From NCBI GenBank assembly GCA_964370145.1, contig CAYJIE010000001.1, forward strand, positions 24,705-88,704: 64,000 nucleotides of DNA, in the 5' to 3' direction. Each line of letters begins with the position of its first letter. The first letter of the stretch is position 1. Below, one piece after another: positions 17,563 through 36,535 of this stretch. Below the pieces are notes generated by a model. It was not told the DNA's origin. It did not search any database and was given only the letters and a program-made list of their open reading frames with translations. Source of the stretch: an uncultured Oscillospiraceae bacterium (GTDB lineage: Bacteria; Bacillota; Clostridia; Oscillospirales; Feifaniaceae). Position numbers and translations under genes: made by a program.

Positions 17563-18993
17563 CTAGTCGAGCTTTTGCAGCTCATCTGATAGAATTTTAT
17601 TTGTTACAAGTGGGTTTGCCTTACTCTTAGTTTTCGCCATGACTTGACCGACGAGAGCAGAAAATGCCGCATGTTTGCCTTTTTTATAATCTTGAACGGT
17701 TTTTTCGTTTGAACTGAGCACCTCGATGACAACGACTCTGATTTTTTCCTCATCATTGATTTGTGCAAGGTCATGCTCTTTTACATAGCGTTCGGGGTCA
17801 ATGTCATTGTCCCAAAGATTCTTTACAAGCTTTTTGGCAACACTTGATGTTATATATTGTGCGGCGCTCATATCGGCGATTACAGCCAAAGTTTCAGGGC
17901 TGATTTTTATATCAACATTGTCGGTGCTAATTAGCCTAAACACCTCGCCTGTCAATAAATTAGCCGCAGTTTTAGGGCTCTTTGAAATTTTTGCACAAAT
18001 ATCAAAATAGTCAGATATCGCCTTGTCGGAGATTATCATCTCTGCAACGGCATTTTCAAGGCCATATGCGTTGATATACTCTTCCTTGCGGCGATCCGGC
18101 ATTGCTTCAAGTGTGTCGCTTATCTGTGCGATTTTCTCAACAGAAAGTTCAATTAATGGCAAGTCGGGGTCGGGGAAATAGCGGTAGTCATTGGCGTTTT
18201 CTTTAGAGCGCATTGAAAATGTCTTGTTTTGATTTGCATCATAACGTCTGGTTTCTTGCACAATTTCACGCCCCTCAAGTGTCGCTTCGACTTGACGATT
18301 ATACTCATATTCAATCGCTTTTGCGATAAATGCGAAAGAGTTGAGATTTTTCATCTCTGTTCTGGTGCCAAAAACATCACTGCCATTTTTTCGAATAGAC
18401 AAATTGACATCACAACGCAGACTTCCTTCCTCCATTTTGCAGTCAGAAACCCCTGTGAACATTATTATTGCACGAAGCTTCCTTAGATATGCAACAGCTT
18501 CTTCGGCAGAGCGCATGTCGGGCTCTGAAACGATTTCAATGAGTGGAACTCCACAGCGATTGCAGTCAATCATTGTGCCATGGTCATCATCGTGAAGGAG
18601 TTTGCCTGCGTCCTCCTCGATGTGAATTCTTGTGATACCCACACGTTTTGCGCCATTTGAGGTTTCGATATCGACATATCCTCCCTCGCAGAGCGGCAGA
18701 TCAAATTGCGAGATTTGATATGCTTTTGGCAGGTCGGGATAGAAGTAGTTTTTTCTGTCTTGCTTAGACTTGTTTGCAATGTGACAATTTGTTGCAAGCC
18801 CTGCTTTAACAGCATATTCCACGACTTTCTCATTTAACACGGGAAGAGTTCCGGGCATCCCCATACAAATCGGGCAACACTGCGTATTAGGCTCCGCGCC
18901 GAACTCCGTTTTACAGTCACAAAAAATCTTAGAATTTGTTTTTAGCTCAACATGGACTTCAAGACCGATGACCATTTCATAGTTTTTAATCAT
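17563..18993 (-). CDS. gatB: Asp-tRNA(Asn)/Glu-tRNA(Gln) amidotransferase subunit B
   Basis: 476 aa with N-terminal YEMVIGLEVHVELKTNSKIFC and a C-terminal YqeY-like tail. The start overlaps the gatA stop by 4 nt. Confidence 0.95.
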   Translation of the reverse strand: MIKNYEMVIGLEVHVELKTNSKIFCDCKTEFGAEPNTQCCPICMGMPGTLPVLNEKVVEYAVKAGLATNCHIANKSKQDRKNYFYPDLPKAYQISQFDLPLCEGGYVDIETSNGAKRVGITRIHIEEDAGKLLHDDDHGTMIDCNRCGVPLIEIVSEPDMRSAEEAVAYLRKLRAIIMFTGVSDCKMEEGSLRCDVNLSIRKNGSDVFGTRTEMKNLNSFAFIAKAIEYEYNRQVEATLEGREIVQETRRYDANQNKTFSMRSKENANDYRYFPDPDLPLIELSVEKIAQISDTLEAMPDRRKEEYINAYGLENAVAEMIISDKAISDYFDICAKISKSPKTAANLLTGEVFRLISTDNVDIKISPETLAVIADMSAAQYITSSVAKKLVKNLWDNDIDPERYVKEHDLAQINDEEKIRVVVIEVLSSNEKTVQDYKKGKHAAFSALVGQVMAKTKSKANPLVTNKILSDELQKLD

Positions 18994-20438
18994 AGTGCAG
19001 TCCCTCCGATTTCCTGTTCAAGCGCATGTCCGACTCCATAGAGGAGTTGCTCGGACAGGGGCTTTCCGATTAGCTGTACGCCGATTGGTAGCTTTTCCTT
19101 CGTCATAGCGCAAGGCATGGCGAGTGAGGGCAGCCCTGCTATATTAATGGGCACGGTGTAGATGTCACCCATATACATCTCGACAGAGCTCATCGTCTTT
19201 TCGCCCAGTTTATAGGCGACGGTAGGCGCGACTGGTGAGAGAATGAAGTCGCATTTATCATGCGCTTTTTTGTAGTCCTCCATTATCAGTGTTCGCACTT
19301 GCAAAGCCTTTTTGTAATATGCGTCGTAGTAGCCGGAGGAAAGTGCAAATGTACCGAGCATAATCCTCCTTTGCACCTCTTTGCCAAAGCCCTCTGAACG
19401 TGAATTTATATAAACTTCGTCTAAAGTGCCTGCTTTTTCACTGCGATGACCATAGCGAATGCCGTCGAAGCGAGCGAGATTGCTCGACGCTTCAGCAGAA
19501 GATATGATGTAATATGCGGATAGGGCATGCTCTAAATTCGGCAGTTTAATCTCCTCGATTTTAGCACCCATGCTCTCGAATTTTTTCGCAGTTGCCATAA
19601 CGGCATCTTTGACTTCAGGGGAAATTCCATCTGCAAAAAATTCACTGGGAAGTCCGACAACAAGGCCCTTGACATCTCTGCCGATTTGCGACATATAGTT
19701 TGGGCGAATACCCTTATTTGATGTAGCATCAAGTTTGTCATGGCTCGCAATAGCTGACAGCACCAGTGCATTGTCGAGCACTGTTCTTGTCAGTGGACCG
19801 ACTTGATCGAGGGACGATGCGAACGCAACCACGCCATATCGTGACACGGTGCCATATGTCGGCTTCATTCCGACTACGCCGCAAAATGCTGCAGGCTGGC
19901 GAATTGAACCGCCGGTATCAGAGCCCAGCGAAAAAGCCGCCTCGTATGCCGCCACACTGGCAGCAGAGCCCCCTGACGAGCCTCCAGGGACACGCTCTAT
20001 GTCATGTGGATTTTTCGTTGGCTTAAAATGTGAATTTTCACAGGAAGAGCCCATGGCGAATTCGTCCATGTTAAGCTTTCCAAGCGGAATATATCCGCTG
20101 TCATCGAGATTTTTCGCAACAGTTGCACTGTAATTTGGGACGAAGTTTTCAAGCATTTTTGAAGCGCAAGTGGTTGAAATCCCACGAGTACAAATATTGT
20201 CTTTAAGCGCACCGCTTATGCCAAGGAGAAGCGCCTCATCTCCATTTGCAATACGTTTGTCTGCCTCGCTTGCACGCTTAAGTGCAAGTTCGCTGGTCAC
20301 ATTTAAATAAGCTCCGATGTCGCCATCTTTCTTTGCAATATTATCAAGATATGCCTGTGTGAGTTCGACGGAGGAAACTTCTTTATTCTTAAGCATTTTT
20401 CTTTGCTCGCTAATTGAAAATTTAGTTAAATCTTTCAT
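18990..20438 (-). CDS. gatA: Asp-tRNA(Asn)/Glu-tRNA(Gln) amidotransferase subunit A
   Basis: 482 aa with the amidase signature GGSSGGSAASVAA and the motif GSDTGGSIRQPA. Confidence 0.95.
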   Translation of the reverse strand: MKDLTKFSISEQRKMLKNKEVSSVELTQAYLDNIAKKDGDIGAYLNVTSELALKRASEADKRIANGDEALLLGISGALKDNICTRGISTTCASKMLENFVPNYSATVAKNLDDSGYIPLGKLNMDEFAMGSSCENSHFKPTKNPHDIERVPGGSSGGSAASVAAYEAAFSLGSDTGGSIRQPAAFCGVVGMKPTYGTVSRYGVVAFASSLDQVGPLTRTVLDNALVLSAIASHDKLDATSNKGIRPNYMSQIGRDVKGLVVGLPSEFFADGISPEVKDAVMATAKKFESMGAKIEEIKLPNLEHALSAYYIISSAEASSNLARFDGIRYGHRSEKAGTLDEVYINSRSEGFGKEVQRRIMLGTFALSSGYYDAYYKKALQVRTLIMEDYKKAHDKCDFILSPVAPTVAYKLGEKTMSSVEMYMGDIYTVPINIAGLPSLAMPCAMTKEKLPIGVQLIGKPLSEQLLYGVGHALEQEIGGTAL

Positions 20439-20568
20439 TTCATGACCTTCCTTTCTGTGTGTTTTGGGCGGTTTTGCAATTGAAAATACAAATCTGCAAA
20501 ATTTCGGTTGCCTTTAGACCGAAAAGCACAAAACACGGTTTGAAAAAATGTTTTTTCAAACTCCCCCT

Positions 20569-22662
20569 CTATTCAAATGACTTCGGAACATAAATATATT
20601 CCTCTGTCTTAGTTTTGGCATTGCTAAGGAGCTCTGCACGGTCACTCTTGTCTGTTGCAATGTCTTCTCTTAACACATTTGACATTGGGAGCACATGTGC
20701 AGTGATTGGAACACCCTCAGTGTCAACTTTTGAGAGGGCGTCAGCGAAGTCCACAATTGCCAACATATCCTCCTCCATGACAGTGATGTCTTTTTCTGAG
20801 AATCTCAGATGCGATAGCTCTGCAATACGCATAACATCAATTCTCTTATGCTCTTTTTGCTTAAGGAATCGCTCTCTCTCCTCGATGTCTGTGAAAGCGC
20901 CGACAAGTGCTAGCTCATGAAGTTGAGAGATGTCAACCTCTGTTGGAGCTCCTGTCATCGGGCAGGAGGCATCTTTATTTTTGGGGAATGCGATTACATC
21001 ACGCAGACTGTCAGCGCCGAGCAGTAGCATAACAAGCCTATCTAGCCCAAAGGCAAAACCTCCATGCGGCGGTGTGCCATAGCTAAACGCGCCGATCATA
21101 AATCCAAAACGCTCTGCGATTTCCTCATCACTAAAACCGAGCATTTCAAACATCTTATGCTGGAGCTCACTATCATTTATACGAATTGAACCGCTTCCAA
21201 GTTCCGTTCCATTGAGCACAACATCATATGAAAGGGCGCGCGCCTTGTCGGGCTCGGTGCTCATCTTCTCGATATCTTCGGGATGCGGCTTTGTGAATGG
21301 GTGATGCTTTGCAACATATCGCTTGTGGTCGTCGTCCCACTCAAACATCGGGAAATCATTGACGATTACAAATTTATAGTCGTCCTTTTTGCGCAAGCCA
21401 AGCATATCGCCGACCGCAAGGCGAAGTCCTGCAAGAACCTTGCAAACTATATCATATTTATCTGCGGAGAACAAAATGAAATCGCCCTTTTTAGCGCCAA
21501 CACGCTTGAGGAGCGCTTTCATCTCCCTATCCGTGAAATATTTTGTTAAGATGGAGTAGATTTCGCCGTCGGGACGATAGGAAATCCAAGCCATGCCCTT
21601 TGCGCCGAGTGCCTGCGCCTTATTCGTCAAATCCTCAATTTCCGTACGTGTGAAATCGGATTTGCAGTCAACATTGATAGCACGCACGACTCCTCCGCTA
21701 GTGACGGCATTTTTGAAAACGGAAAATGAGCATTTTGCGGCAATATCTGTTACATCGACGATGGGCAAGTCAAATCGCAAATCAGGTTTGTCACAACCAT
21801 ATGTCTCCATCGCCTCATGATAGCTCATGCGTGGAAATGGCTTTTTGAAATCAAGCCCCATCACTTCAAAGAGCACATGTTTAAACAGCTTTTCAAGATG
21901 TGTCAACACGTCCTCTTCAGTACAAAATGACATCTCCATATCCACTTGAGTGAACTCGGGTTGTCGGTCTGCTCGAAGATCTTCGTCCCTAAAGCAGCGT
22001 GCAACTTGATAGTATTTATCTACACCGCCCACCATGAGGAGTTGCTTGAAGATTTGCGGACTTTGTGGCAGCGCATAGAATTCGCCCGCATGAACACGGC
22101 TGGGAACAAGATAGTCTCTTGCGCCTTCGGGAGTTGATTTGCAGAGGATTGGAGTTTCAACAGAGATGAAACCATCGCTGTCGAGATAGTTTTCTATGGC
22201 TCTTTGCACTCTGTGTCGCAGTCTTAAATTGCCTAACATCTCAGGGCGTCGTATGTCTAAATAACGGTATTTAAGTCGCAGGTCTTCACGGACAGCATTG
22301 CCCTCCTCAAGGGGGAATGGCAGAGTTTTTGCCACTGACTGTACGATGAGATTTTTTGCTCGAAGCTCTATCGTTCCAGTTGGTATATTAGCATTATATG
22401 TGTCCTCGCTGCGAATTTCAATTACTCCTTGCACGGTGATTACAGATTGGATTTTCAAAGCATCGGCAAGTGCAAAGTCATGCGAATTCATATCAGAGCT
22501 GTCAAACACGACTTGAAGAACACCTTCCCTATCAAATAAGTCAACGAAAACGATGCCACCCATATCTCTTTTTGTGCGCACCCAACCGGAGACGGTAATA
22601 TTCTGTCCGACACTCTTTTCAGCAACCAAACCACAATAAACGGTTCTCATTAATTCACCCAC
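20569..22662 (-). CDS. aspS: aspartate--tRNA ligase (bacterial type) with a C-terminal GatC domain fused in frame
   Basis: 697 aa. Residues 1 to ~585 form a full AspRS (FRDEDLRADRQPEFTQVD, GGFAFGLDRLVMLL, GAD insertion). The last 92 aa, at about nt 20572-20847, align with GatC (IAELSHLRFSEKD, VDTEGVPITAHVLPMSNVLRED, YIYVPKSFE). Confidence 0.85.
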   Translation of the reverse strand: MGELMRTVYCGLVAEKSVGQNITVSGWVRTKRDMGGIVFVDLFDREGVLQVVFDSSDMNSHDFALADALKIQSVITVQGVIEIRSEDTYNANIPTGTIELRAKNLIVQSVAKTLPFPLEEGNAVREDLRLKYRYLDIRRPEMLGNLRLRHRVQRAIENYLDSDGFISVETPILCKSTPEGARDYLVPSRVHAGEFYALPQSPQIFKQLLMVGGVDKYYQVARCFRDEDLRADRQPEFTQVDMEMSFCTEEDVLTHLEKLFKHVLFEVMGLDFKKPFPRMSYHEAMETYGCDKPDLRFDLPIVDVTDIAAKCSFSVFKNAVTSGGVVRAINVDCKSDFTRTEIEDLTNKAQALGAKGMAWISYRPDGEIYSILTKYFTDREMKALLKRVGAKKGDFILFSADKYDIVCKVLAGLRLAVGDMLGLRKKDDYKFVIVNDFPMFEWDDDHKRYVAKHHPFTKPHPEDIEKMSTEPDKARALSYDVVLNGTELGSGSIRINDSELQHKMFEMLGFSDEEIAERFGFMIGAFSYGTPPHGGFAFGLDRLVMLLLGADSLRDVIAFPKNKDASCPMTGAPTEVDISQLHELALVGAFTDIEERERFLKQKEHKRIDVMRIAELSHLRFSEKDITVMEEDMLAIVDFADALSKVDTEGVPITAHVLPMSNVLREDIATDKSDRAELLSNAKTKTEEYIYVPKSFE

Positions 22663-22712
22663 GACACAGTCTCCTTTAATCGATTAATTTAATTATATGG
22701 TATATTCCATCT

Positions 22713-22741
22713 ATTATATAGCTAATTATGGATATTTGCAA
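22713..22741 (-). promoter_or_regulatory. sigma-A type promoter for aspS
   Basis: Reverse strand: TTGCAA (22741-22736), a 17-nt spacer, then TATAAT (22718-22713). This implies a ~45-nt leader, too short for a T-box. Confidence 0.5.
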
Positions 22742-22967: not shown

Positions 22968-23044
22968 ATTGGTAGTTATAAAAAATGGGAGCAGTGTGAC
23001 TTTTTTCACTTAGCGAAATCATTATTGAGCGGTGGGAGGTGTAT

Positions 23045-24961
23045 ATGAGCAAAGTTTTTCTATCTCAAGATGAGATATATCTATTTAACAATGGAGAATT
23101 CTTTGACAGTTATCTGCGCTTTGGCTCGCATGTAATTGAAGATGGACAGGGCGTCGAGGGCGTTCATTTTGCGTGCTGGGCACCAAATGCAAAGTCGGTA
23201 AGAGTGGTGGGTGACTTCAATTCATGGGATATAAATAAAGATATCATGGAGCGACACGAGGGCGGAGTTTTCACAACATTCATCCCATCCCTTGGCGAGG
23301 GAGAAAAATATAAATATCAGATTGAAACATATACGGGAGAGTATGTGTTTAAGAGCGACCCATATGCTTTTTGGTCAGAAGTGAGACCGCATACAGCGTC
23401 AATCGTACGAAGCCTTGAGAATAAGCATAAATGGGGCGACGCAAAATGGTATAGAGAGCAGAGGAAGTCTGCACCTCGCGAGAAAAAAATGCTTATATAC
23501 GAAGTGCATCTTTCCTCTTGGAAAGTGCATGAAAACGGCAATTGGCCGACATATAGAGAATATGCGGATATGCTAATTCCATATGTGAAAGATATGGGTT
23601 ATACACATATTGAGTTAATGCCTCTAACAGAGCATCCCTTTGACGGTTCGTGGGGATATCAAGCGACTGGCTATTACAGTGCCACAAGTCGCTATGGGAC
23701 ACCTGAAGATTTGATGTTTTTTGTAGATATGTGTCATCAAAACGGAATTGGTGTAATCATGGATTGGGTTCCAGGGCATTTTTGCAAAGACGCACATGGG
23801 CTTGGATTGTTTGACGGAACCCCTTGCTTTGAAGCTGAGGAGCATTTGCAATGGGGGACATATAAGTTTGATTTTTCCAAGAAGGAAGTTAGAAGTTTTC
23901 TAATTTCAAATGCGCTGTTTTGGATTGAGAAATTCCATTTTGACGGTTTGCGAGTGGATGGCGTGTCCTCCATGCTACATTTGGACTTTGATCGAGAGGA
24001 ATTTGAGCCCAATATATATGGGGGAAGAGAAAATCTCGAAGCAATTCAATTCTTAAAGGACTTAAATCGAATCGTTATAACAAAGCATCCTACGGCGATG
24101 ATGATTGCCGAGGAGTCCACCGATTGGCCAATGGTGACAAAGCCTGCGTTTGACGGGGGCTTGGGCTTTACTTTTAAGTGGAATATGGGTTGGATGAATG
24201 ACACCCTCAAATATATGGAGACTTGGTTTGAGGACAGGCGAAAGCACCATGATCTTGTGACTTTTTCCATGATGTATGCGTTTTCGGAGGAATTTATCCT
24301 GCCAATGTCACATGATGAGGTTGTGCATGGGAAGTGCTCGCTGGTGAATAAGATGCCGGGGGATAACTGGCAAAAGTTTGCAAATTATCGAGCAATGTAC
24401 ATGTATCAAATGGCACACCCCGGTAAAAAGCTCACATTCATGGGTTGTGAATTTGCACAGTATATCGAGTGGAAATATTACGAACCGCTTGAGTGGTTCA
24501 TGTTGGACTATCCATTGCACAGACAATTTATGCAGTTCACAAAGGAACTAAATCATCTCTATTTAAGCGAGGGTGCTCTTTGGCAGAATGAGAGCAGTTG
24601 GGATACTTTTGAGTGGCTGGACGCTGACAATAATGAGCAGGCGATTTTGTCATTTGTGCGACGTGCAAAAGGATGCGATGATTTAATTGTCGTTATAAAT
24701 TTCAGACCCGAGGCATATGATGAATTTCGTATTGGTGTTCCTTGTGAAGGGACATATGTCGAGTTGTTCAACACTGATAAGTCAGAGTATGGCGGAGCGG
24801 GATATCACAGAAATCTTGCGACACAAAGCGAAGCAAAGCTATTTCATAAATGCGAGCACTCAATAAAAATCAAGCTACCACCGCTTGGAGCGGTTGTTCT
24901 AAAAAGAGAAAAAAAGGTAAGGAAAGCGAGAGTTACAAAAAAGACTGCGTCAAAGCAGTGA
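23045..24961 (+). CDS. glgB: 1,4-alpha-glucan branching enzyme
   Basis: 638 aa from the ATG at 23045, 6 nt after GGGAGG. GH13 motifs are GVIMDWVPGHF, DGLRVDGV, IAEEST and SHDEVVHGK. Confidence 0.93.
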   Translation: MSKVFLSQDEIYLFNNGEFFDSYLRFGSHVIEDGQGVEGVHFACWAPNAKSVRVVGDFNSWDINKDIMERHEGGVFTTFIPSLGEGEKYKYQIETYTGEYVFKSDPYAFWSEVRPHTASIVRSLENKHKWGDAKWYREQRKSAPREKKMLIYEVHLSSWKVHENGNWPTYREYADMLIPYVKDMGYTHIELMPLTEHPFDGSWGYQATGYYSATSRYGTPEDLMFFVDMCHQNGIGVIMDWVPGHFCKDAHGLGLFDGTPCFEAEEHLQWGTYKFDFSKKEVRSFLISNALFWIEKFHFDGLRVDGVSSMLHLDFDREEFEPNIYGGRENLEAIQFLKDLNRIVITKHPTAMMIAEESTDWPMVTKPAFDGGLGFTFKWNMGWMNDTLKYMETWFEDRRKHHDLVTFSMMYAFSEEFILPMSHDEVVHGKCSLVNKMPGDNWQKFANYRAMYMYQMAHPGKKLTFMGCEFAQYIEWKYYEPLEWFMLDYPLHRQFMQFTKELNHLYLSEGALWQNESSWDTFEWLDADNNEQAILSFVRRAKGCDDLIVVINFRPEAYDEFRIGVPCEGTYVELFNTDKSEYGGAGYHRNLATQSEAKLFHKCEHSIKIKLPPLGAVVLKREKKVRKARVTKKTASKQ

Positions 24962-24986
24962 TTAAAGAAAGTGTAGGTAGATTGCA

Positions 24987-27455
24987 ATGAAGCATGTAAT
25001 GGATTTTCTATTTAAAGACAAAGAAGAATTCAAAAAACTCTATAAAGAAAAATTTGTTGAAACAGAGGGTAAGGCGTTTGAGCAAGGCTCAACTAGAGAG
25101 CATTACCATGCCCTTGTTAGCTTACTTAAAGACAGACTAAATTTGAACTGGACAAAGTCAATAAAGAGCTATTCGGAGAAGAATGAAAGACAAGTGTATT
25201 ATTTTTCAATGGAATTTCTAATCGGAAAGCTACTTGAGCACTATCTTGTAAATCTCGGGTTAGTTGATGTCATTCGTGATGGTTTAAATGACTTTGGAGT
25301 AAGCCTTGAGGATATATATCTTGAGGAGTCTGACGCAGGACTTGGCAATGGCGGTCTTGGTCGTCTTGCGGCTTGTTTCCTTGACAGCCTTGCTTTCTTG
25401 GGTATTCCAGGACATGGCAATGGTATGAGATATCAAATTGGACTTTTTGCACAGAAGTTTGTAGATGGCTATCAAGTTGAGATGCCTGATAACTGGCTGA
25501 AAAATCCATATCCTTGGGAGCAACGCAAAGCGGAGAAGGCCGTGGTTGTAAAGTTCAAGGGACGTGTTGAGCATGAAGTGGTGGGCGGAGTTGAGAAATT
25601 CGTACTCCGTGACTATGAGCCTGTGCTCGCAGTGCCATATGATGTGCCAATGGTGTCATATAACTCTATTGGAAATATCAACAACTTGCGTCTTTGGAAA
25701 GCAGAGCCAATGTCAGAGGAGCTTGACATGGCGATGTTTAATGCAGGTGACTTTGCAAGAGCGATGGGATATAGAAGTGAGGTCGAGGCGATTTCATATA
25801 TCCTCTATCCGGAGGATAGTGGCGCTTCAGGGCGTGAACTCCGTCTAAAACAAGAATATCTGATTGTTGCCGCAGGTATCGGTTCGATTATTCGACATCA
25901 CAAGAAAAACGGCAATGACATAAAAATCCTTGCGAAGAAAGTCGCAATACATATAAATGATACCCATCCTGCATTGGCGGTACCTGAACTCATGAGAGTG
26001 CTAATCGATGAAGAGGGAATGGGCTGGGAGCAAGCTTGGGCAATCACAGGCAATACGATTTCTTATACAAATCACACGATTTTGCCGGAGGCGTTGGAGA
26101 AATGGCCTGTTGACCTCATGCGATATCTGCTTCCAAGGCTGTATCAAATTACAGAGGAGATTGACAGAAGATACAAAGAGGTAATTTTGCGTCGCTTCCC
26201 AGGAAACCACAGACTTGTGGACGCAACATGCATCATCAAGGATGGCTATGTGAGAATGGCTAATCTTTCAGTAATCGGAAGCTACTCTGTAAATGGTGTT
26301 GCGGCGCTACACACTGATATCCTTAAGAGTTTTGTAATGGCGGATCACTACAAAGTGGCACCGTATAAATTCAACAACAAAACAAATGGTATCAGTCACA
26401 GACGATTCCTACTAACAGCAAACTACAATCTTTCAAAGCTAATTACAAAGACGATCGGATACACTTGGAAATTCAATGCATTTGAACTTGAAAAACTTAT
26501 GGATAAAGTAAATGATGACGGTTTCTTAATCGAGATGGCTGAGGCGAAATTTAAGAATAAGCAAAAACTTGCCGCATATATTAAGAAACATAACAATGTT
26601 GTCATTGATCCCAATTCAATTTTTGATGTACAAGTTAAGCGTATTCACGCATATAAGAGACAACTGATGAATGCACTTAAAATCATGGATTTGTACAATC
26701 GATTAAAAGAGGATCCAAAACTTGATATCACCCCTGTAACTTTCATATTCGCAGGCAAGGCGGCACCGGGATATCACTACGCAAAAATGGTAATCAAGTT
26801 AATAAATTCAATTGCTGACATTGTTAACAATGACAAGGCGATTAAGGGCAAGATTAAGGTCGTGTTCCTTGAGAACTTCAATGTTACACTTGGGCAATTG
26901 ATTTACACTGCTGCTGATATCAGTGAGCAAATTTCAACAGCTAGCCAAGAAGCGAGCGGCACAGGAAACATGAAGTTCATGATGAATGGTGCAATCACTC
27001 TTGGAACAATGGATGGAGCGAATGTTGAGATTTACGAGAGCGTTGGTGAGGAAAATATTAAAATCTTCGGGCTTTCTGCGGATAAAGTAATTGAGTATCA
27101 AAGAGCGGGCGGATATCGCTCATGGGACGAGTATATGGGCAATGCCTCAATTAAAAAAGTGCTCGATCAACTTGTAAACGGATACTTCAAGGGTCTTGAG
27201 GGTGAGTTTAGAGAGATATTTGATTCGCTGACAATTGACAATGATTCCTTCTTTGTACTAAAAGACTTTATTGCATACAGAGACGCATTCACAGAGCTTT
27301 GCGGACAGTATAAAGATAAGAAAAAATGGAGTCAAATGGCATTAAATAATATCGCTAAGAGTGGCGTATTTAGCGCTGACCGCACAATTAAAGATTATGC
27401 GGCAGACATTTGGAAAGTTAGATTTATAGACAATGAGAGCACATATAATGACTAG
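24987..27455 (+). CDS. glgP: glycogen/maltodextrin phosphorylase
   Basis: 822 aa with the GT35 PLP-lysine motif EASGTGNMKFMMNGA and the motif DAGLGNGGLGRLAACFLDS. Confidence 0.95.
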   Translation: MKHVMDFLFKDKEEFKKLYKEKFVETEGKAFEQGSTREHYHALVSLLKDRLNLNWTKSIKSYSEKNERQVYYFSMEFLIGKLLEHYLVNLGLVDVIRDGLNDFGVSLEDIYLEESDAGLGNGGLGRLAACFLDSLAFLGIPGHGNGMRYQIGLFAQKFVDGYQVEMPDNWLKNPYPWEQRKAEKAVVVKFKGRVEHEVVGGVEKFVLRDYEPVLAVPYDVPMVSYNSIGNINNLRLWKAEPMSEELDMAMFNAGDFARAMGYRSEVEAISYILYPEDSGASGRELRLKQEYLIVAAGIGSIIRHHKKNGNDIKILAKKVAIHINDTHPALAVPELMRVLIDEEGMGWEQAWAITGNTISYTNHTILPEALEKWPVDLMRYLLPRLYQITEEIDRRYKEVILRRFPGNHRLVDATCIIKDGYVRMANLSVIGSYSVNGVAALHTDILKSFVMADHYKVAPYKFNNKTNGISHRRFLLTANYNLSKLITKTIGYTWKFNAFELEKLMDKVNDDGFLIEMAEAKFKNKQKLAAYIKKHNNVVIDPNSIFDVQVKRIHAYKRQLMNALKIMDLYNRLKEDPKLDITPVTFIFAGKAAPGYHYAKMVIKLINSIADIVNNDKAIKGKIKVVFLENFNVTLGQLIYTAADISEQISTASQEASGTGNMKFMMNGAITLGTMDGANVEIYESVGEENIKIFGLSADKVIEYQRAGGYRSWDEYMGNASIKKVLDQLVNGYFKGLEGEFREIFDSLTIDNDSFFVLKDFIAYRDAFTELCGQYKDKKKWSQMALNNIAKSGVFSADRTIKDYAADIWKVRFIDNESTYND

Positions 27456-27514
27456 GCTCATATATTAATAAAGTGCTATAATCTAACCAGATAAAAATTT
27501 ATAGGAGGTAACTT

Positions 27515-28714
27515 ATGGAGCGCAATGAATGTATCGCAATGTTGCTTGCCGGCGGGCAGGGAAGTAGACTTGGTGCGATGACGCAAGATATCGCAAAACC
27601 CGGTCTATCATTTGGCGGCAAATACAGAATAATAGATTTTAGTTTATCCAATTGTACTAATTCGGGCATTGAGACAGTCGGCGTACTCACGCAATATAAA
27701 CCGTTTTTGCTTAATACATATGTTGGTATTGGTTCGGCGTGGGATCTTGACCGTGATCAAGGCGGAATGCATGTGCTTCCACCGTATATGAGTGCGAGTG
27801 GCGGCGCGTGGTACAAGGGAACTGCAAATGCGATTTATCAAAACATGGAATTTATTGATAATTACGATCCTGAATATGTGCTTATTTTATCAGGTGACCA
27901 TATATATAAAATGGATTATTCAAAGATGCTCGAAGTCCACAAGGACAATGAAGCTGATTTGACAATTGCAGTGCTTGAAGTGCCTGATGAAGAGACAAGT
28001 CGCTTTGGGATAATGACAGTTGACGACAGTGATCAAATCATAAAATTTACTGAAAAGCCAAAGAATGCAGATAGTAATCTCGCATCAATGGGTATTTATA
28101 TATTCACTTGGGATGTGCTTAAGAAAGCACTCATTGCAGATGAAGCTGATGAGGATTCTGACAATGATTTCGGTAAGAATATCATTCCAAAATTGCTAGA
28201 GCAAAAATGCAAGCTCATGGCACATCGCTTTGTTGGTTATTGGAAAGATGTCGGAACGGTTACAAGTTACTACGAGACAAATATGGAGTTGCTTGAAGTT
28301 GAAAACGGGCTTGACATTTTTGATACGAATTTTAGAATAGCTTCAAATGCGGATATATTACCGCCGCAATTTATTGGAGTGGATGCAAAAGTTGATGATA
28401 GCTTAATTAGCAATGGTTGCACCGTGCTCGGAACAGTAAAACGCTCGATTCTTGGACCGGGGGTATATGTTGCTGAGGGAGCAGAGGTGGTGGATTCAAT
28501 CTTGCTACCATACTCCAAAGTGGGAAGTTCAAGCACAGTTGTTAAGACAATTCTTGGTGAGAAGTCGAGCGTTGGCGAGAGATGCATGCTGGGTGCAAAA
28601 CGCGAAGATGAAGAGCAAGCTAAGAACAATGGAATTTGTGTTGTTGGAAACAGCTGCATTCTAAACGAGAACATGACAATTTTCGAGGGCGATGAGCTTA
28701 GAAGACATCAATAA
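27515..28714 (+). CDS. glgC: glucose-1-phosphate adenylyltransferase, catalytic subunit
   Basis: 399 aa with [14 protein letters not shown] and [15 protein letters not shown], plus a C-terminal left-handed beta-helix region. Confidence 0.95.
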
Positions 28715-28756
28715 AGCGGAATAAAAAACAAGCTATGAAAGCGAAGGATTAATCAC

Positions 28757-29884
28757 ATGATAAATGCAATTGGAATAATAAGCTCAAATTATCGTTCTGA
28801 CTTGCTCGACTCACTTAGCAAGATAAGGCCTGTGGGAGCTATACCATTTGGCGGGAGGTATAGGTTGATAGACTTTGCTCTGTCAAACATGGTGAACGCA
28901 GGAATAAGAACAGTTGGAATAATCGTGCCATATAGATATCGACCGATTTCAGACCATTTGGGAGCGGGCAAAGATTGGGGACTTGATAGAAGAACGGGCG
29001 GAATGTTTGTGTTGCCAAGTGCAATACCTGACTTGCACTTTAGAATATATAAATTCTGCCTTAAAGATTTTGCCGCAAACTTGGAGTATATGACAAACAC
29101 TGACGCGGATTATGTGGTGATTAGCTCCTGCAACTATATTTACAATATAAATTACAATGACATCATAGAAAAACATAAAAAAGAAGGCGCAAATGTGACT
29201 TTGGTGTACAAGAATTTACCGAGCGAGGACTCGGCGACTACGTCCATTATTGAAACGGATAGCGAGTCAAATGTTGTAGACATCATCAAACCAGGGCAAA
29301 AGAGCGACAGCGATGAAAAACATGAGATGTATAAGCATTTTGCGGATATATTTGTGTTTAATCGTCTGGAATTTGTAAGAATGGTTCAAGCTTGTGTAGA
29401 CCTGGAGTTTACAGATTTAGTGGATTTGATTAAGGCTAATTTACAATTGCTTAAAGTGACTACATATGAAATTGAAGGTTATTTTGAGCAAATTTATTCG
29501 GTGTCAGACTATTACAGAGCAAGCATGGATATGTTAAATCACTCAATTCGACATGAACTGTTTATGAGCAAGAGGAGAATTTTGACAAAAGTCAAGGACA
29601 ATCCTCCAACAAGATATAGCGGGGATATTGAGGTGCATAATTCACTCATTTCAAGCGGTTGTGTGATAAAGGGTGAAATTACGGACAGCATTATATTTAG
29701 AGGTTGCGAAATTGAAGAAGGTGCGGTCATAAAAAATAGTATTATAATGCAAAATTGCAAAATTGGAAGAGACTGCATAATTGAAAATGTGATCATGGAT
29801 AAGGCAGTGGAAATAAACAACAGCGTCGTTTTGAAGGGATTCAAATATCGCCCAATGGTAATTCCCAAGGGCAGTAAATTATAA
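28757..29884 (+). CDS. glgD: glucose-1-phosphate adenylyltransferase, GlgD subunit
   Basis: 375-aa GlgC paralog lacking the GGxGxRL loop (it has FGGRYRLIDFALSNM). Its position after glgC is the usual Firmicute arrangement. Confidence 0.85.
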   Translation: MINAIGIISSNYRSDLLDSLSKIRPVGAIPFGGRYRLIDFALSNMVNAGIRTVGIIVPYRYRPISDHLGAGKDWGLDRRTGGMFVLPSAIPDLHFRIYKFCLKDFAANLEYMTNTDADYVVISSCNYIYNINYNDIIEKHKKEGANVTLVYKNLPSEDSATTSIIETDSESNVVDIIKPGQKSDSDEKHEMYKHFADIFVFNRLEFVRMVQACVDLEFTDLVDLIKANLQLLKVTTYEIEGYFEQIYSVSDYYRASMDMLNHSIRHELFMSKRRILTKVKDNPPTRYSGDIEVHNSLISSGCVIKGEITDSIIFRGCEIEEGAVIKNSIIMQNCKIGRDCIIENVIMDKAVEINNSVVLKGFKYRPMVIPKGSKL

Positions 29885-29899
29885 TTGGAGGAAATTTTG

Positions 29900-31351
29900 A
29901 TGTTAGAAGTTTTATTTGTAGCTTGTGAATGTGCTCCATTTGCAAAAAGCGGAGGGCTTGCAGATATTATGTCTTCCTTGCCAAAGGAAATGTATAGTCA
30001 AGGCTATGATGTAAGGGTAATAATGCCGAAATATGGTATGATTGCGCAGGAGTACAAAGATAAAATGACAAAGACAGCGGAAATTAATGTTCCGCTTGGC
30101 TGGCGCGACCTATACTGCGGTATATGGGAAATGGTACATGAAAATATCACATATTACTTCATTGACAATGAGTTATATTTTAACCGCGAGGGGATTTATG
30201 GATATGATGATGACGGCGAGAGATTTGCATATTTCTCAAGAGCGGTTCTTGAGACAATTGCATCACTTGAAAAGCTAAAACCCGACGTCATCCATTGCAA
30301 TGACTGGCATACAGCACTTGTTCCACTGTTTTTCAAAGAGATGTACAAAGCAATTCCGTATTTTTCTGAGATGAAAACGGTGTTTACAATACACAATCTT
30401 AAGCATCAAGGCAATTTTGACAAGGCAATTTTTGATGATTTGCTTGGGCTTGCTGGAAGAACAGAAGCGTGGAAAGCGCTTGAATATTATGATAGGCTCA
30501 ATTTCATGAAGGCAGGCATTGTTATGGCGGACAAAGTGACAACCGTCAGTCCGACATATGCGGAGGAGATCAAAGGTGGATTTTACGGCGAGGGTCTTGA
30601 CTTTGTGATTGCTTCTAGGGAGGAAGACTTTGTCGGTATATTAAATGGTATTCCGAAGAGAAAACAACCATTTTATAAAGGTGGTAACAGAAATCAAATC
30701 ATGCCAAAGAAGCTTGCGGACTTCAAAGCGGAGAATAAAGCAGAACTTCAAGAGTGGATGGGACTTGATGTGCGCAAAGATGTGCCTGTGGTCGGTCTTG
30801 TAACTCGATTTGTTGAGCAAAAAGGCATTGATTTAATCACATATATATTAAATGACTTATTGCAAGGCGACACACAATTCGCTTTCCTTGGAGCGGGCGA
30901 TGCGAAATATGAAGATGCTTTTAGGCATTTCCAAGCAGTGGCTCCGGGTAGATTTGCGGTTAGAACAGAGTATGATGAAAATGTAGCTGAGAAGATATTC
31001 CAAGGGGCAGATTTTCTACTCGTGCCTTCACTATTCGAGCCATGCGGCCTAACTCAAATGATGGCGATGGAATATGGCACATTACCGATTGTTCGTGAGA
31101 CTGGCGGGCTTAAGGACACCGTTGTGCCATATAATCAGTTTACTGGCGAGGGTAATGGCTTTAGCTTTGCAAACTTCAATGCGCATGAACTACTTGAAGT
31201 GGTAAATGTTGCACTCACAATGTATTGGGAGGATAATAAAGCATTGAAAAAACTTTCAAATGAAGCAGCCAAGACGAATTTTGAATGGGGTAACTCAGCA
31301 AAGGCATATGCTGACATATACGAAAGTTTCGATTTCCACAAAGATATGTAA
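29900..31351 (+). CDS. glgA: glycogen synthase (ADP-glucose type, GT5)
   Basis: 483 aa from the ATG at 29900, after GGAGGA. N-terminal motif ECAPFAKSGGLADI, plus PSLFEPCGLTQM. Confidence 0.93.
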   Translation: MLEVLFVACECAPFAKSGGLADIMSSLPKEMYSQGYDVRVIMPKYGMIAQEYKDKMTKTAEINVPLGWRDLYCGIWEMVHENITYYFIDNELYFNREGIYGYDDDGERFAYFSRAVLETIASLEKLKPDVIHCNDWHTALVPLFFKEMYKAIPYFSEMKTVFTIHNLKHQGNFDKAIFDDLLGLAGRTEAWKALEYYDRLNFMKAGIVMADKVTTVSPTYAEEIKGGFYGEGLDFVIASREEDFVGILNGIPKRKQPFYKGGNRNQIMPKKLADFKAENKAELQEWMGLDVRKDVPVVGLVTRFVEQKGIDLITYILNDLLQGDTQFAFLGAGDAKYEDAFRHFQAVAPGRFAVRTEYDENVAEKIFQGADFLLVPSLFEPCGLTQMMAMEYGTLPIVRETGGLKDTVVPYNQFTGEGNGFSFANFNAHELLEVVNVALTMYWEDNKALKKLSNEAAKTNFEWGNSAKAYADIYESFDFHKDM

Positions 31352-31387
31352 TAATAATTATTTTGTAGGGAGTTGTAATATTGTTTA

Positions 31388-31425
31388 ACTTTGCTCTTTG
31401 CGTGTGTTCATGCAAAGAGCAAAGT
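31388..31425 (+). other. intercistronic stem-loop with a perfect 14-bp stem
   Basis: ACTTTGCTCTTTGC, a 10-nt loop, then GCAAAGAGCAAAGT. No U tract follows. It lies between the glgA stop and the next start. Confidence 0.6.
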
Positions 31426-31446
31426 AGTATAAGACAAGGAGCGAGA

Positions 31447-34400
31447 ATGTATAGAGATGTTTATCACAATTCGTATCTTGAAGAATATAGAAGTCCTTTT
31501 GGCGCCGTAAAATGTGGCGAAAAAGTCACATTAAGGTTGCGTGCATCGGTGGGATATTATGGTGACTGCGTATTAAGGCTGTGGGCAAATGACAGAGAGC
31601 AACTGGTTTCAATGAACAGGGTTGAGGTTGAGGGCGCACAGGAGAAATATATTTGGTTTGAGGGCACATTTAATATGCCGAAAAAACCAGGGTTAGTCTG
31701 GTATTATTTTTGTTTACAAAATGACCATGAAACCTATTACTTAGGTAATTCATATTCAATGACCGGCGGAGAAGGCGCTATATATGAGCACGCTCCGATG
31801 GCATATCAAATTACATGCTACAATGAAACTAAATCCCCAGCATGGTTTAAGCATGGGCGCATGTATCAGATTTTCCCTGATCGCTTTTGCAATGGAAATG
31901 ATGATATGCGCATAAATTCCCCCAAAAAGGGCAGCTTGTTACAGGCAACTTGGGATGATGCACCCTCCTATCAAAAGGATAGAGATGGGAAGATCATGTC
32001 GTGGATTTTTGCGGGCGGAAATCTTAAAGGCATAATAAAAAAGCTCGATTACTTACAAAGTTTGGGGATAACTGTTGTTTATCTAAATCCAATTTTTGAA
32101 GCCGCAAGCAATCATAGATATGATACGGCGGACTATTTGAATGTCGATCCGGTACTTGGGACAAATGAAGACTTTGCCGAAATGGTGGCAGAGGGGAAAA
32201 AGCGTGGAATTAATTTTATCTTGGATGGCGTTTTCAGCCACACTGGACAAGATAGCATATATTTTAATAAGTCAGGTAATTACGGCGAGGGTGGAGCATA
32301 TAATGATGTGAACAGCCCTTACCATAAATGGTATAAATTTAAGAATTTTCCCACGGAATATGAGTGTTGGTGGGATTTTGACGAGCTTCCGAATGTAAAT
32401 GAGTTGGAGGAGAGTTATCTTGATTTCATTTGCAGAAATGAAGATAGTGTGGTGCGCACATGGATTAGGCGTGGAGCAATGGGCTTTAGATTTGATGTTG
32501 CGGACGAATTGCCAGATGAATTCATAAAGGAGCTTAGGAAGGCGATTAAAGAGGAGAATTCAGAGGCTGTTTTAATAGGAGAAGTCTGGGAGGACGCATC
32601 TAATAAGCAGGCATATGGCATACAGAGAGAATACTTTTATGGTGAAGAGTTAGATGGTGTCATGAACTACCCGTTCCGTGATGCGCTACTCGGCTTTGGG
32701 TTAGGAAAAATATCATCATTTGATGCGGCGAAGCAAATAATGAGCATCATGGAGAACTATCCTAAGGAGAACTTGCTCGCATCAATGAATATGCTTAGTA
32801 CACATGACCGTCCACGCTCGCTGACGGTGCTTGGCGGCGTATGCTCTGATAAGGGCGAGGATTATATTGAGCTTACAGACTTACAAAAAATTAAGTTCAA
32901 ATTGACCAAAGAGCAAGAACTAAAAGGATTGCGCAAGCTAAAAATGCTCTCAGCATTGCTATATGCTCTGCCCGGTATTCCATCGATTTACTATGGCGAA
33001 GAAGTTGGGATGCAGGGATTCATGGATCCATATAATCGGGGAACTTTTCCATGGGGAAAAGAACGAGGTGAGCTGACAGATTGGTATAGGTCGCTAAATG
33101 ATGCCCGTGAGAACTATATGGGAAAATTCATTGAGTCAAAATACTATCCAATTTTGACTGACAATGATTTACTTGGATTTAAGTCTGAAAAAGATGGAGA
33201 ATGGCTCTATGTTCTTGCTAACAGGCATGAGGAGGAGAGCCGAAATTTCAAATTTGAAGTCGACGTGGAGCTTACATATTGTATGGAGCTTACAGAGGGG
33301 AAAATTATCGAGCCACAGTATTTGCGTGGAGAAATTGCAAGTTTCGATGTGGATATTGCTCCCCTATCAACGAGAATTTTTTTGCTGAGAAAGAAGTTCG
33401 CCGTTCAGCGGCTCGAGAGAGGTGCTGGAGTGCTCATGCATATAACTTCGCTTAATGGGGACTTTTTTGTCGGAGATATGGGGAAATGTGCATATGATTT
33501 TGTTGACTTTCTTGAAAGAGCAAAGCAAAAACTCTGGCAAGTTCTCCCCCTTGCACCGACTGGATGCACAAATTCGCCATATTACTCATCTTGTGCACTT
33601 GCAGGAAACCCAATAATGATTTCACTTGAAAAAATTGCGGAGCTTGGTTTGATAAAACAGTCGGAAATTGACAGTGAATTAGCTAAATTCACTGCAAAGC
33701 ATCCAAAGATAAAGGAAAATCGTGTTCCATGTGCCCAAGTGACTAAAATAAAAATGAACATGATTTCTAAGGCTTATGAGGTGTTTTTGACGCAAAACGG
33801 TGCAAAAATTGCAGAAGAATTTGAGAAATATATCGCAGAAAACAACTATTGGGTGAGAGATTATGCGCTGTATCAAGTCATTAAGCAAAAAAGTAATGAC
33901 TTACCGTGGTACGAGTGGACTGATTTGGATTTGAGATTCAGAGAAAAGGCAGCGATTGAAGCTGCATATAAAAAATATGAAAAAGAAGTCAACTACTTCA
34001 TTTTTGAGCAATTTTTGTTTGACAAGCAGTGGGCAGAACTTAGCAAATATGCAAACTCCAAAGGTGTTTCAATAATTGGCGATGCCCCGATATATGTAGC
34101 TGGCGATTCACTGGATGTGTGGGCAAATCAAGAGCTTTTCAAGCTAGACGAAAGCGGTGAACCGCTTAAGGTTGGTGGTTGTCCTCCTGATTTCTTCTCC
34201 GACGATGGGCAGTTTTGGGGAAATCCCGTGTTTGATTGGGAAGCTCATAAAAAAGAGAAATACAATTGGTGGAAACAGAGACTAAGACGTGACTTTTCAC
34301 ATGCTGACTTTATCAGACTCGACCATTTTAGAGGATTTAGTGCTTATTATGAGATTTCAGCAAAAGAAGAGACTGCGCGAAATGGCAGTTGGGTGCGTGG

Positions 34401-34908
34401 CGGCGGCGTTGATTTTTTTGCAAGCCTCACAAATGACATGGGAGCGCTGGGGATTATTGCAGAGGACTTAGGACATATAACTGCTGATGTCAACAATCTC
34501 AAGAACTATTTTGGATATAAGGGAATGGAAATTTTCCAATTTTCAGAGTCCTTGAAAGCCGGATTTATTGAGCTTGAGCATCTAAAAAATTCGATTTTGT
34601 ACACAGGAACGCATGATAACAAAACTTTGCTGGAATTCATTCAAGAGACCACAGATTTAGAAGGCGAGGAACAAGTTGAAGAAATTTATAGCATAATAGA
34701 GAGCTTGTATAAATCTGATGCACCATGGGTAATTGTGCCGATACAAGACATTTTGGGGCTTGGGGCTGACAGCAAAATGAATGTGCCTGGGACAGTTTCA
34801 GAGGACAATTGGAGCTGGAAAATGACGGCGCAGGATGATAGAATAATGAATTCCGCAGATATATTGGATTGGCTAGAAAAACTCGTTGTGGATAGTGACA
34901 GAGATTGA
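31447..34908 (+). CDS. fusion protein: GH13 alpha-glucosidase/neopullulanase-like domain plus GH77 4-alpha-glucanotransferase (MalQ) domain
   Basis: 1153 aa from the ATG at 31447, after AAGGAG. The GH13 regions are DGVFSHTG, GFRFDVADELP, GEVWED and LSTHDRPR, up to about nt 33400. The GH77 part begins at RGAGVLMHITSL and has IGDAPIYVAGDSLDVW, RLDHFRGF, IAEDLG and YTGTHDN. Confidence 0.85.
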   Translation: MYRDVYHNSYLEEYRSPFGAVKCGEKVTLRLRASVGYYGDCVLRLWANDREQLVSMNRVEVEGAQEKYIWFEGTFNMPKKPGLVWYYFCLQNDHETYYLGNSYSMTGGEGAIYEHAPMAYQITCYNETKSPAWFKHGRMYQIFPDRFCNGNDDMRINSPKKGSLLQATWDDAPSYQKDRDGKIMSWIFAGGNLKGIIKKLDYLQSLGITVVYLNPIFEAASNHRYDTADYLNVDPVLGTNEDFAEMVAEGKKRGINFILDGVFSHTGQDSIYFNKSGNYGEGGAYNDVNSPYHKWYKFKNFPTEYECWWDFDELPNVNELEESYLDFICRNEDSVVRTWIRRGAMGFRFDVADELPDEFIKELRKAIKEENSEAVLIGEVWEDASNKQAYGIQREYFYGEELDGVMNYPFRDALLGFGLGKISSFDAAKQIMSIMENYPKENLLASMNMLSTHDRPRSLTVLGGVCSDKGEDYIELTDLQKIKFKLTKEQELKGLRKLKMLSALLYALPGIPSIYYGEEVGMQGFMDPYNRGTFPWGKERGELTDWYRSLNDARENYMGKFIESKYYPILTDNDLLGFKSEKDGEWLYVLANRHEEESRNFKFEVDVELTYCMELTEGKIIEPQYLRGEIASFDVDIAPLSTRIFLLRKKFAVQRLERGAGVLMHITSLNGDFFVGDMGKCAYDFVDFLERAKQKLWQVLPLAPTGCTNSPYYSSCALAGNPIMISLEKIAELGLIKQSEIDSELAKFTAKHPKIKENRVPCAQVTKIKMNMISKAYEVFLTQNGAKIAEEFEKYIAENNYWVRDYALYQVIKQKSNDLPWYEWTDLDLRFREKAAIEAAYKKYEKEVNYFIFEQFLFDKQWAELSKYANSKGVSIIGDAPIYVAGDSLDVWANQELFKLDESGEPLKVGGCPPDFFSDDGQFWGNPVFDWEAHKKEKYNWWKQRLRRDFSHADFIRLDHFRGFSAYYEISAKEETARNGSWVRGGGVDFFASLTNDMGALGIIAEDLGHITADVNNLKNYFGYKGMEIFQFSESLKAGFIELEHLKNSILYTGTHDNKTLLEFIQETTDLEGEEQVEEIYSIIESLYKSDAPWVIVPIQDILGLGADSKMNVPGTVSEDNWSWKMTAQDDRIMNSADILDWLEKLVVDSDRD

Positions 34909-34971
34909 CAAGCAGTGACAAAATGCAATTGATATTAAAATATGCCGCATATGCGGCGGAATGGAGCTTTT

Positions 34972-36525: not shown

Positions 36526-36535
36526 GAGTTAATTT

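Follow-up and report, generated by a model that had tools for sequence, protein, structure and literature searches.

Transamidosomes are a textbook example of how substrate channelling guards the genetic code, and those known are non-covalent, dependent on tRNA and of varying stability. Aspartyl-tRNA synthetase (AspRS) is a homodimer, while GatC is the small scaffold subunit between the GatA glutaminase and the GatB transamidase, which it keeps together. The subject of this analysis is a stretch of 64,000 nucleotides (nt) from an uncultured Oscillospiraceae bacterium (GenBank assembly GCA_964370145.1, contig CAYJIE010000001.1, positions 24,705 to 88,704 of the forward strand; hereafter the window), in which a single gene, here called aspS::gatC, encodes an AspRS with a GatC at its C-terminus and stands directly upstream of gatA and gatB. 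In our opinion, its product probably works as a covalent tether between AspRS and GatAB.

GatC has been described as a stabilising scaffold of GatA-GatB (PMC8406222). In Mycobacterium tuberculosis AspRS and GatCAB alone form no complex and transamidosome assembly needs tRNA, and stabilisation of the mycobacterial transamidosome leads to higher translational fidelity (PMC8406222). The Helicobacter pylori transamidosome is dynamic (PMC3367201), and that organism has an extra protein, Hp0100, for tRNA-independent assembly of the transamidosome, according to the work on it as cited in PMC8406222. The Asn-transamidosomes of Pseudomonas aeruginosa (4WJ3), M. tuberculosis and H. pylori share with our locus their components (a GAD-containing AspRS, GatC, GatA and GatB) as well as their presumed purpose, namely that Asp-tRNA(Asn) is kept from the ribosome (PMC8406222, PMC3367201). 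They differ in being non-covalent and held by tRNA(Asn), whereas here a peptide linker would give a tRNA-independent and obligatory 1:1 association. The Hp0100 system, as far as the citing paper describes it, also joins a non-discriminating AspRS (ND-AspRS) and GatCAB without tRNA, but the bridging is done by a separate protein and not by a covalent link. As for stoichiometry, PDB entry 4wj3 has four GatC chains and the matching AspRS sequence occurs in five chains across 4wj3 and 4wj4, counts that are compatible with a 1:1 ratio of AspRS to GatC in the P. aeruginosa crystal.

Two further systems invite comparison. In GatCAB the C-terminal beta-hairpin of GatC pairs with a GatB hairpin near the CCA end of the tRNA, and it is because of this pairing that fusion of GatC to GatA impairs function: the Mycobacterium smegmatis GatC-GatA fusion mutants are laboratory-selected, partial loss-of-function strains with more mistranslation (PMC7541841). 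There, as in our case, GatC has been joined to a partner by loss of a stop codon; however, the join in M. smegmatis is at the GatC C-terminus, while the fusion in the window is at the GatC N-terminus and is natural and conserved. The other system is the glutaminyl-tRNA synthetase (GlnRS) of Deinococcus radiodurans, which carries a C-terminal YqeY/GatB-like domain (PMC1865053). It is likewise a synthetase with a C-terminal module related to an amidotransferase subunit, but there the module relates to the tRNA-binding tail of GatB, serves the direct pathway and recruits no amidotransferase.

The locus is composed as follows (aa, amino acids; ORF, open reading frame; positions are those of the window).

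20569..22662, minus strand: aspS::gatC fusion gene, an uninterrupted ORF of 697 aa with a GTG start and a TAG stop at 20569-20571.
20905..22653, minus strand: bacterial-type AspRS module, residues 4-586 (TIGR00459, NF001750, Pfam).
22348-22599, minus strand: OB anticodon-binding domain PF01336, residues 22-105 (Pfam).
20974-22287, minus strand: class II D/K/N core PF00152, residues 126-563 (Pfam, 405 bits).
21433-21717, minus strand: GAD insertion PF02938, residues 316-410 (Pfam).
20845..20904, minus strand: charged linker, residues ~587-606 (AFTDIEERERFLKQKEHKRI), filling the gap that the AspRS and GatC model matches leave.
20572..20844, minus strand: GatC module, residues 607-697 (PF02686, TIGR00135, GatC structures).
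20439..20568, minus strand: spacer of 130 nt between the fusion gene and gatA, carrying the gatA ribosome-binding site AAGGAAGG.
20538-20561, minus strand: AT-rich perfect hairpin GTTTGAAAAAA-CA-TTTTTTCAAAC, directly after the fusion stop codon.
18990..20438, minus strand: gatA, 482 aa (TIGR00132, 612 bits against a cutoff of 481; PF01425).
17563..18993, minus strand: gatB, 476 aa (NF004012, 640.8 bits against a cutoff of 338; PF02934, PF02637), overlapping the gatA stop by 4 nt.

The AspRS part is a complete bacterial-type aspartyl-tRNA synthetase. The curated NCBIfam model aspS_bact (TIGR00459) matches residues 4-586 with 754.6 bits, the cutoff being 373.85, and NF001750 gives the fusion protein 810.3 bits against a cutoff of 443. 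Motifs 2 and 3 of the class II core, FRDEDLRADRQPEFTQVD and GGFAFGLDRLVMLL, are present in the translation. The predicted AspRS body matches solved bacterial AspRSs (1c0a, 4wj3_M, 6sjc) over ~590 columns with E ~1e-63, and the best PDB match of the anticodon-binding domain is the P. aeruginosa ND-AspRS.

The C-terminal part matches GatC by every route used. PF02686 is covered over all its 66 positions by residues 621-692 (E=2.6e-15; 56.8 bits, the cutoff being 23), and TIGR00135, the gatC model, matches residues 607-694 over 3-90 of its 93 positions, with 74 bits where 47.1 are required; the tail on its own reaches 78.6 bits with the GatC model. It matches Staphylococcus aureus GatC (2df4_C, residues 6-92) end to end with E=4.7e-10, and it also aligns with GatC of the Aquifex GatCAB (3h0l_C) and of the P. 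aeruginosa transamidosome (4wj3_C). A stand-alone GatC of 96 aa, located directly before gatA-gatB, is 41% identical to the tail over all 91 aa and has the same motifs; what distinguishes the stand-alone GatCs of gatCAB operons is that they have no N-terminal partner.

A first-pass annotation, made from the letters and their open reading frames, had already proposed this architecture, and our analysis bears it out. The single 697-aa ORF at 20569-22662 appears as such in the ORF listing; residues 1 to ~585, taken as a complete synthetase with an OB domain, class II motifs and a GAD insertion, correspond to the model matches at 4-586, to the Pfam domains and to the motifs in the translation; the charged linker is there at residues ~587-606; and the GatC part, placed at ~20572-20847, is correct to within one codon, with its end-to-end alignment and quoted motifs supported by model coverage, structures and translation alike. 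The profile search that the annotation had proposed, with the Pfam GatC and AspRS models against the 697-aa protein, gave significant matches to both. Also confirmed was the position of gatA-gatB, 130 nt downstream on the same strand, both genes scoring above their equivalog cutoffs, while the gap, said to hold no gatC-sized ORF, has none on the gene strand that reaches 40 aa. The claim that no separate gatC exists holds within the 64-kb window, where neither tblastn with 30 GatC sequences nor a GatC-tail hidden Markov model run against the six-frame translation found a second GatC-like coding potential. Finally, the claim that AspRS and GatC are covalently joined is strengthened by the fact that both halves pass curated family cutoffs and that junction and synteny are conserved, as described below.

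One objection to a fused gene is that aspS and gatC are in truth separate and were joined in the assembly through an overlooked stop codon or an indel, and it is true that fragmentary metagenome contigs can break a gene. Indeed, on one low-coverage metagenome contig (L081:1-1868) a fused gene has a frameshift between its AspRS and GatC parts, and the gene caller recorded the tail as a stand-alone GatC of 106 aa (P0133). But the junction is found in frame far too often for such an origin. We collected the 120 best database clusters at 90% identity, which are 60-70% identical to the window protein: 119 of them are 680-738 aa long and have PF02686 in addition to the AspRS domains, and the one exception comes from a 2.2-kb contig. 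We also scanned one genome per species (GTDB species representatives), where the best 80 loci comprise 27 fused and 53 non-fused ones; in the fused loci the match extends to residue 692 at least (694-697 in 26 of them). These in-frame junctions come from independent projects and include a complete chromosome (Ca. Limiplasma OY776489) and cultured isolates (Ligaoa zhengdingensis NSJ-31 and Tissierellaceae HCP3S3_D8), and the annotated taxa of the 27 are Oscillospiraceae, Ruminococcaceae UBA1448, Christensenellales, Feifaniaceae, Tissierellia, Clostridiaceae, Ca. Limiplasma and Ca. Fimadaptatus. Among the fused loci the AspRS parts are 58-71% identical and the tails 27-55%, thus the junction has lasted through a long divergence. 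The fused AspRSs are monophyletic among the AspRS sequences sampled, with 100 of 100 neighbour-joining bootstraps. We see practically no chance that an artefact lies behind all this, and conclude that aspS::gatC is a genuine, anciently fixed bifunctional gene.

The broken gene on L081 has a consequence of its own: among the short proteins that large collections list as 'GatC' there are fragments of fusions. When the tail served as query, HMMER found mainly stand-alone GatCs of ~95 aa and fragments and no full-length fusions, hence it gives no count of fusions; at least one of its top short hits, P0133, is such a fragment of a fused gene. The exact 697-aa protein of the window has no record in the protein database searched.

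The first-pass annotation could not say how common this fusion is, and it had allowed that the architecture might turn out to be a well-annotated and common family. The cluster and locus counts given above show that it is common in gut Clostridia, and a curated NCBIfam model exists: NF009460 (PRK12820) is named 'bifunctional aspartyl-tRNA synthetase/aspartyl/glutamyl-tRNA amidotransferase subunit C'. The UniProt/UniRef name of the Ligaoa relative, 'Multifunctional fusion protein', is a label of the same kind. By the annotation's own terms this speaks in part against its claim. The fusion is much less novel than it first seemed, but the reading of the protein stands. The likeness to NF009460 is one of end-to-end architecture (residues 7-691 on model positions 23-717 of 723, E=9e-195), but the window protein scores 648.9 bits against a cutoff of 1379, and eight other divergent members of the clade, at 578-673 bits, also stay below the cutoff. 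Since all nine are so far below it, NF009460 seems to model a different, narrow lineage with a shared design. The named proteins of the clade are called 'aspartate--tRNA ligase', 'aspartyl-tRNA synthetase' or 'Multifunctional fusion protein', and none of these names mentions GatC. No paper on a natural AspRS-GatC fusion, on PRK12820 or on NF009460 was found in the literature searched, which missed several key subscription papers.

The neighbourhood of the gene sets the fused loci apart from the others. In all 27 of them gatA, and gatB if the contig reaches that far, lies directly downstream, with no gatC between the fusion and gatA-gatB or within ~6 kb where the contig reaches; among the 53 non-fused aspS loci there is not one with gatA or gatB within 6 kb. 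On the other side of the gene, hisS was found directly upstream in each of the five non-fused loci tested (L027, L029, L039, L070, L076) and in none of the five fused loci tested (L009, L018, L019, L023, L028), where the genes are unrelated. The simplest account, and a likely one, is a single event in which aspS left a hisS-aspS pair, landed before gatCAB and then lost its stop codon.

In two Tissierellia loci (L016:6561-7874 and L019:4560-9430), what separates aspS::gatC from gatB is a gene for a short, divergent GatA of 437-438 aa, which is 36% identical to GatA of the window and reaches only 376-381 bits with TIGR00132, whose cutoff is 481. Immediately upstream of the fusion in L019 stands an asparaginase-family gene, with archaeal GatD among its weak matches.

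The residues which we take to mark non-discriminating AspRSs are His31 and Gly82 of P. aeruginosa, in place of Leu and Lys in Escherichia coli. At the first of these positions 28 of 28 fused proteins have Met (residue 34 in the window protein, nt 22561-22563, in an RDMGG motif), and at the second they have E, D, S or T. Elsewhere the first position is occupied by His in the solved non-discriminating enzymes, by Leu30 in E. coli, and by Lys, Leu or His, with one Ala, in the non-fused relatives. The invariant Met is, on the sequences compared, a clade-specific signature in the anticodon-binding domain.

This signature at an anticodon-reading position, together with the location of fused aspS outside hisS-aspS, could be taken to mean that the fused enzyme is a second AspRS paralogue dedicated to tRNA-dependent Asn synthesis, with a housekeeping hisS-aspS elsewhere in the genome. 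There are precedents, as some Clostridiaceae have extra copies of AspRS and GatCAB and Clostridium acetobutylicum has three AspRSs (PMC4206432), and such a division of labour is compatible with tethering. We nevertheless think a dedicated paralogue unlikely. The AspRS part is far above the housekeeping equivalog cutoff (810 against 443 bits), the clade covers several orders of Clostridia, it diverges from other Firmicutes AspRSs by ~50-55%, as orthologues typically do, and among the best 80 loci of the genome scan there is no second AspRS from the same assemblies.

The reading that we favour is that of a fused, working gene which tethers AspRS to GatAB for the synthesis of Asn-tRNA, and we put its probability at roughly 0.7. 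The fused GatC would be the working C subunit for the GatA and GatB encoded downstream, so that GatAB would stay attached to the AspRS dimer even without tRNA, at one per protomer. Given that AspRS is dimeric, the particle would be a tRNA-independent (AspRS-GatC)2:GatA2:GatB2. Asp-tRNA(Asn), made by a putative non-discriminating AspRS, would go directly to GatB, which would amidate it to Asn-tRNA(Asn), and such a hand-over may limit the escape of the mischarged intermediate. As GatC is joined by its N-terminus, its C-terminal beta-hairpin would stay free to pair with GatB. To call this a 'hard-wired transamidosome' is in our opinion a reasonable reading, drawn from just the covalent link and the operon context.

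Several observations weigh against this proposal. At the two marker positions the window protein has Met and Asp, which match neither type of AspRS, and its identity to solved discriminating and to solved non-discriminating AspRSs is equal, at 45-48%. The AlphaFold single-chain model of the fusion is only of moderate quality, with a mean predicted local distance difference test (pLDDT) score of 72, and is silent on the docking of GatAB. Some members of the fused clade (L021-L025) have a degenerate NV-RED motif in their GatC part. The spacer before gatA, with its 130 nt and its hairpin, is longer than in most relatives (usually 10-60 nt), and might uncouple the expression of the fusion from that of GatAB or shift the one relative to the other.

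Two of these points call for separate remarks. We tried to read the discrimination type of the AspRS from its sequence and rejected the attempt, the markers fitting neither type and the PDB ranking and the identity values not separating the two. A role of the spacer hairpin as an attenuator or terminator was considered and likewise rejected: the hairpin is AT-rich, the folding of the spacer is unexceptional (z=-1.0), and no terminator is predicted on its minus strand.

The eroded GatC motifs of L021-L025 could indicate that the tail is a GatC-derived docking or vestigial domain, while a separate gatC supplies GatCAB and the tail at most competes for GatAB or binds it transiently. NCBIfam does have other 'GatC-like' fusion proteins (NF009461, a weak match to the window protein), and the absence of gatC holds for the 64-kb window. 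However, in all 27 loci the fusion is directly followed by gatA-gatB and no gatC intervenes, and the nearest stand-alone GatCs looked up (L083, L084; ~40% identity) directly precede gatA at the head of ordinary gatC-gatA-gatB operons. The tail moreover passes the GatC equivalog cutoff and has kept conserved GatC positions across 41 fused sequences: L616, L619, F639, A640, N662, D667 and P693 are invariant and ~20 more are near-invariant, and the GatC motifs DTxGV…TAHV.P..NV.RED … LL.NAP…gY..VP recur in 28 species. In the same 41 proteins the linker has no conserved column except L586, the last AspRS residue. As judged from this alignment, purifying selection acts on the GatC positions, and the linker varies freely. 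We therefore give little credence to a vestigial tail with a GatC from elsewhere; the support for a tail that would serve as a working GatC is indirect but consistent.

It may also be asked whether the product, although made as a fusion, works as two proteins, through internal initiation or cleavage of the linker, in which case the fusion would only enforce co-expression and stoichiometry. The linker would not be ill suited to this. In the 28 fused proteins aligned it is ~20-35 aa long, rich in K, A, E and G, variable in sequence, charged and of low complexity; it is also predicted to be disordered, the pLDDT being below 50 at residues 558-588 and 599-606, and the window protein has a Met at residue 612, near the start of GatC. 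Yet this Met is not conserved in relatives, a Shine-Dalgarno-like motif with an in-frame start at -25 to +12 codons of the GatC start occurs in 5 of 28 genes and not in that of the window, and no conserved cleavage motif is visible in the linker among the aligned proteins. A separate GatC from internal initiation is thus unlikely, and that the fusion acts as two proteins by either route we regard as distinctly improbable. In the structure model the AspRS body is normal and the linker is of low confidence, whereas the GatC part shows two confident helices at its start and then disorder, most of the tail being of low confidence. A modelled tail of this kind is what would be expected of a belt-like GatC without its partners, and proves nothing on docking.

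A stronger version of the tethering proposal is that these genomes have no GatC besides the fused tail, so that every GatCAB would be bolted to an AspRS dimer as an obligate, tRNA-independent machine. We think it somewhat less likely than not. Should it be true, these bacteria would provide a natural experiment on the value of channelling for fidelity in the indirect pathway, and it would be unusual if the same tethered enzyme also served Glu-tRNA(Gln), in organisms without GlnRS.

A separate observation concerns a 37-kb contig of a metagenome-assembled genome (L082:8001-8678; GCA_964370445.1, CAYJJK010000012.1), where a protein of 225 aa is encoded directly upstream of gatA-gatB. It consists of an AspRS-type OB anticodon-binding domain (PF01336, 36 bits), a linker and a GatC (PF02686, 62 bits), and the catalytic core is missing. 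Its OB domain is 31% identical to that of the window protein and has lost the invariant residues of the fused clade, and in the database searched this OB-GatC architecture has no homologue besides itself. To us it looks like the outcome of an old in-frame deletion of the catalytic core and not like an assembly error; it may serve GatCAB as an arm that recruits tRNA, or be a remnant in decay. If the fused tail were indeed the only GatC, this protein would suggest that the synthetase half doubles as a tRNA-recruiting arm for the amidotransferase.

The remaining features of the locus are ordinary. An in-frame ATG at 22650, four codons after the GTG, is an alternative start that would give a protein of 693 aa. 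Two expression signals were found upstream of the fusion gene:

22671-22677, minus strand: Shine-Dalgarno sequence AAAGGAG, 8 nt 5' of the GTG of the fusion gene.
22713..22741, minus strand: promoter-like site TTGCAA-17-TATAAT from a consensus scan, ~50 nt upstream of the start codon.

Neither Rfam nor a consensus scan found a T-box or other leader in the region upstream of the fusion gene, and the sole Rfam match in the whole 64-kb window is a tRNA-Leu. The window holds no other aminoacyl-tRNA synthetase, asnS, glnS, asnA/asnB or tRNA(Asn). Downstream of the aspS::gatC-gatA-gatB operon are genes for a CPBP-family protease and a PAS-GGDEF protein; upstream of the fusion, on the opposite strand, is a glycogen operon; and elsewhere in the window are SecA, SpoVA, Spo0A and an Mrp antiporter, the G+C content being ~43%. 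Such a gene content suggests a Firmicute that forms endospores. The glycogen operon (23039-38275) has Pfam matches typical of glgB, glgP, glgC, glgD, glgA, a fusion, pgi and pgm, these names being taken from the domains. The fusion in it (31381-34908, plus strand) is a protein of 1175 aa with an alpha-amylase/GlgX-like domain and a 4-alpha-glucanotransferase (MalQ), matching NF011083 with 1145 bits where the cutoff is 1322. At 57156-57947 and 57975-59303 (plus strand) lie two neighbouring ORFs, of 263 and 442 aa, for which Pfam gives no match at E<=1e-5.

Because this architecture is common and curated databases already list it, we do not regard it as a new kind of system. The design of the fusion is catalogued, while the clade to which the window protein belongs is common in gut-associated Clostridia and apparently uncharacterised. 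In our opinion the fusion is of moderate interest, for two reasons. A lineage in which the transamidosome may be naturally hard-wired would offer a ready-made genetic test of what tethering gains. Further, since GatC goes unmentioned in the names that proteins of this clade bear, surveys that rely on names or on pathway completeness may wrongly call gatC missing in many gut Clostridia.

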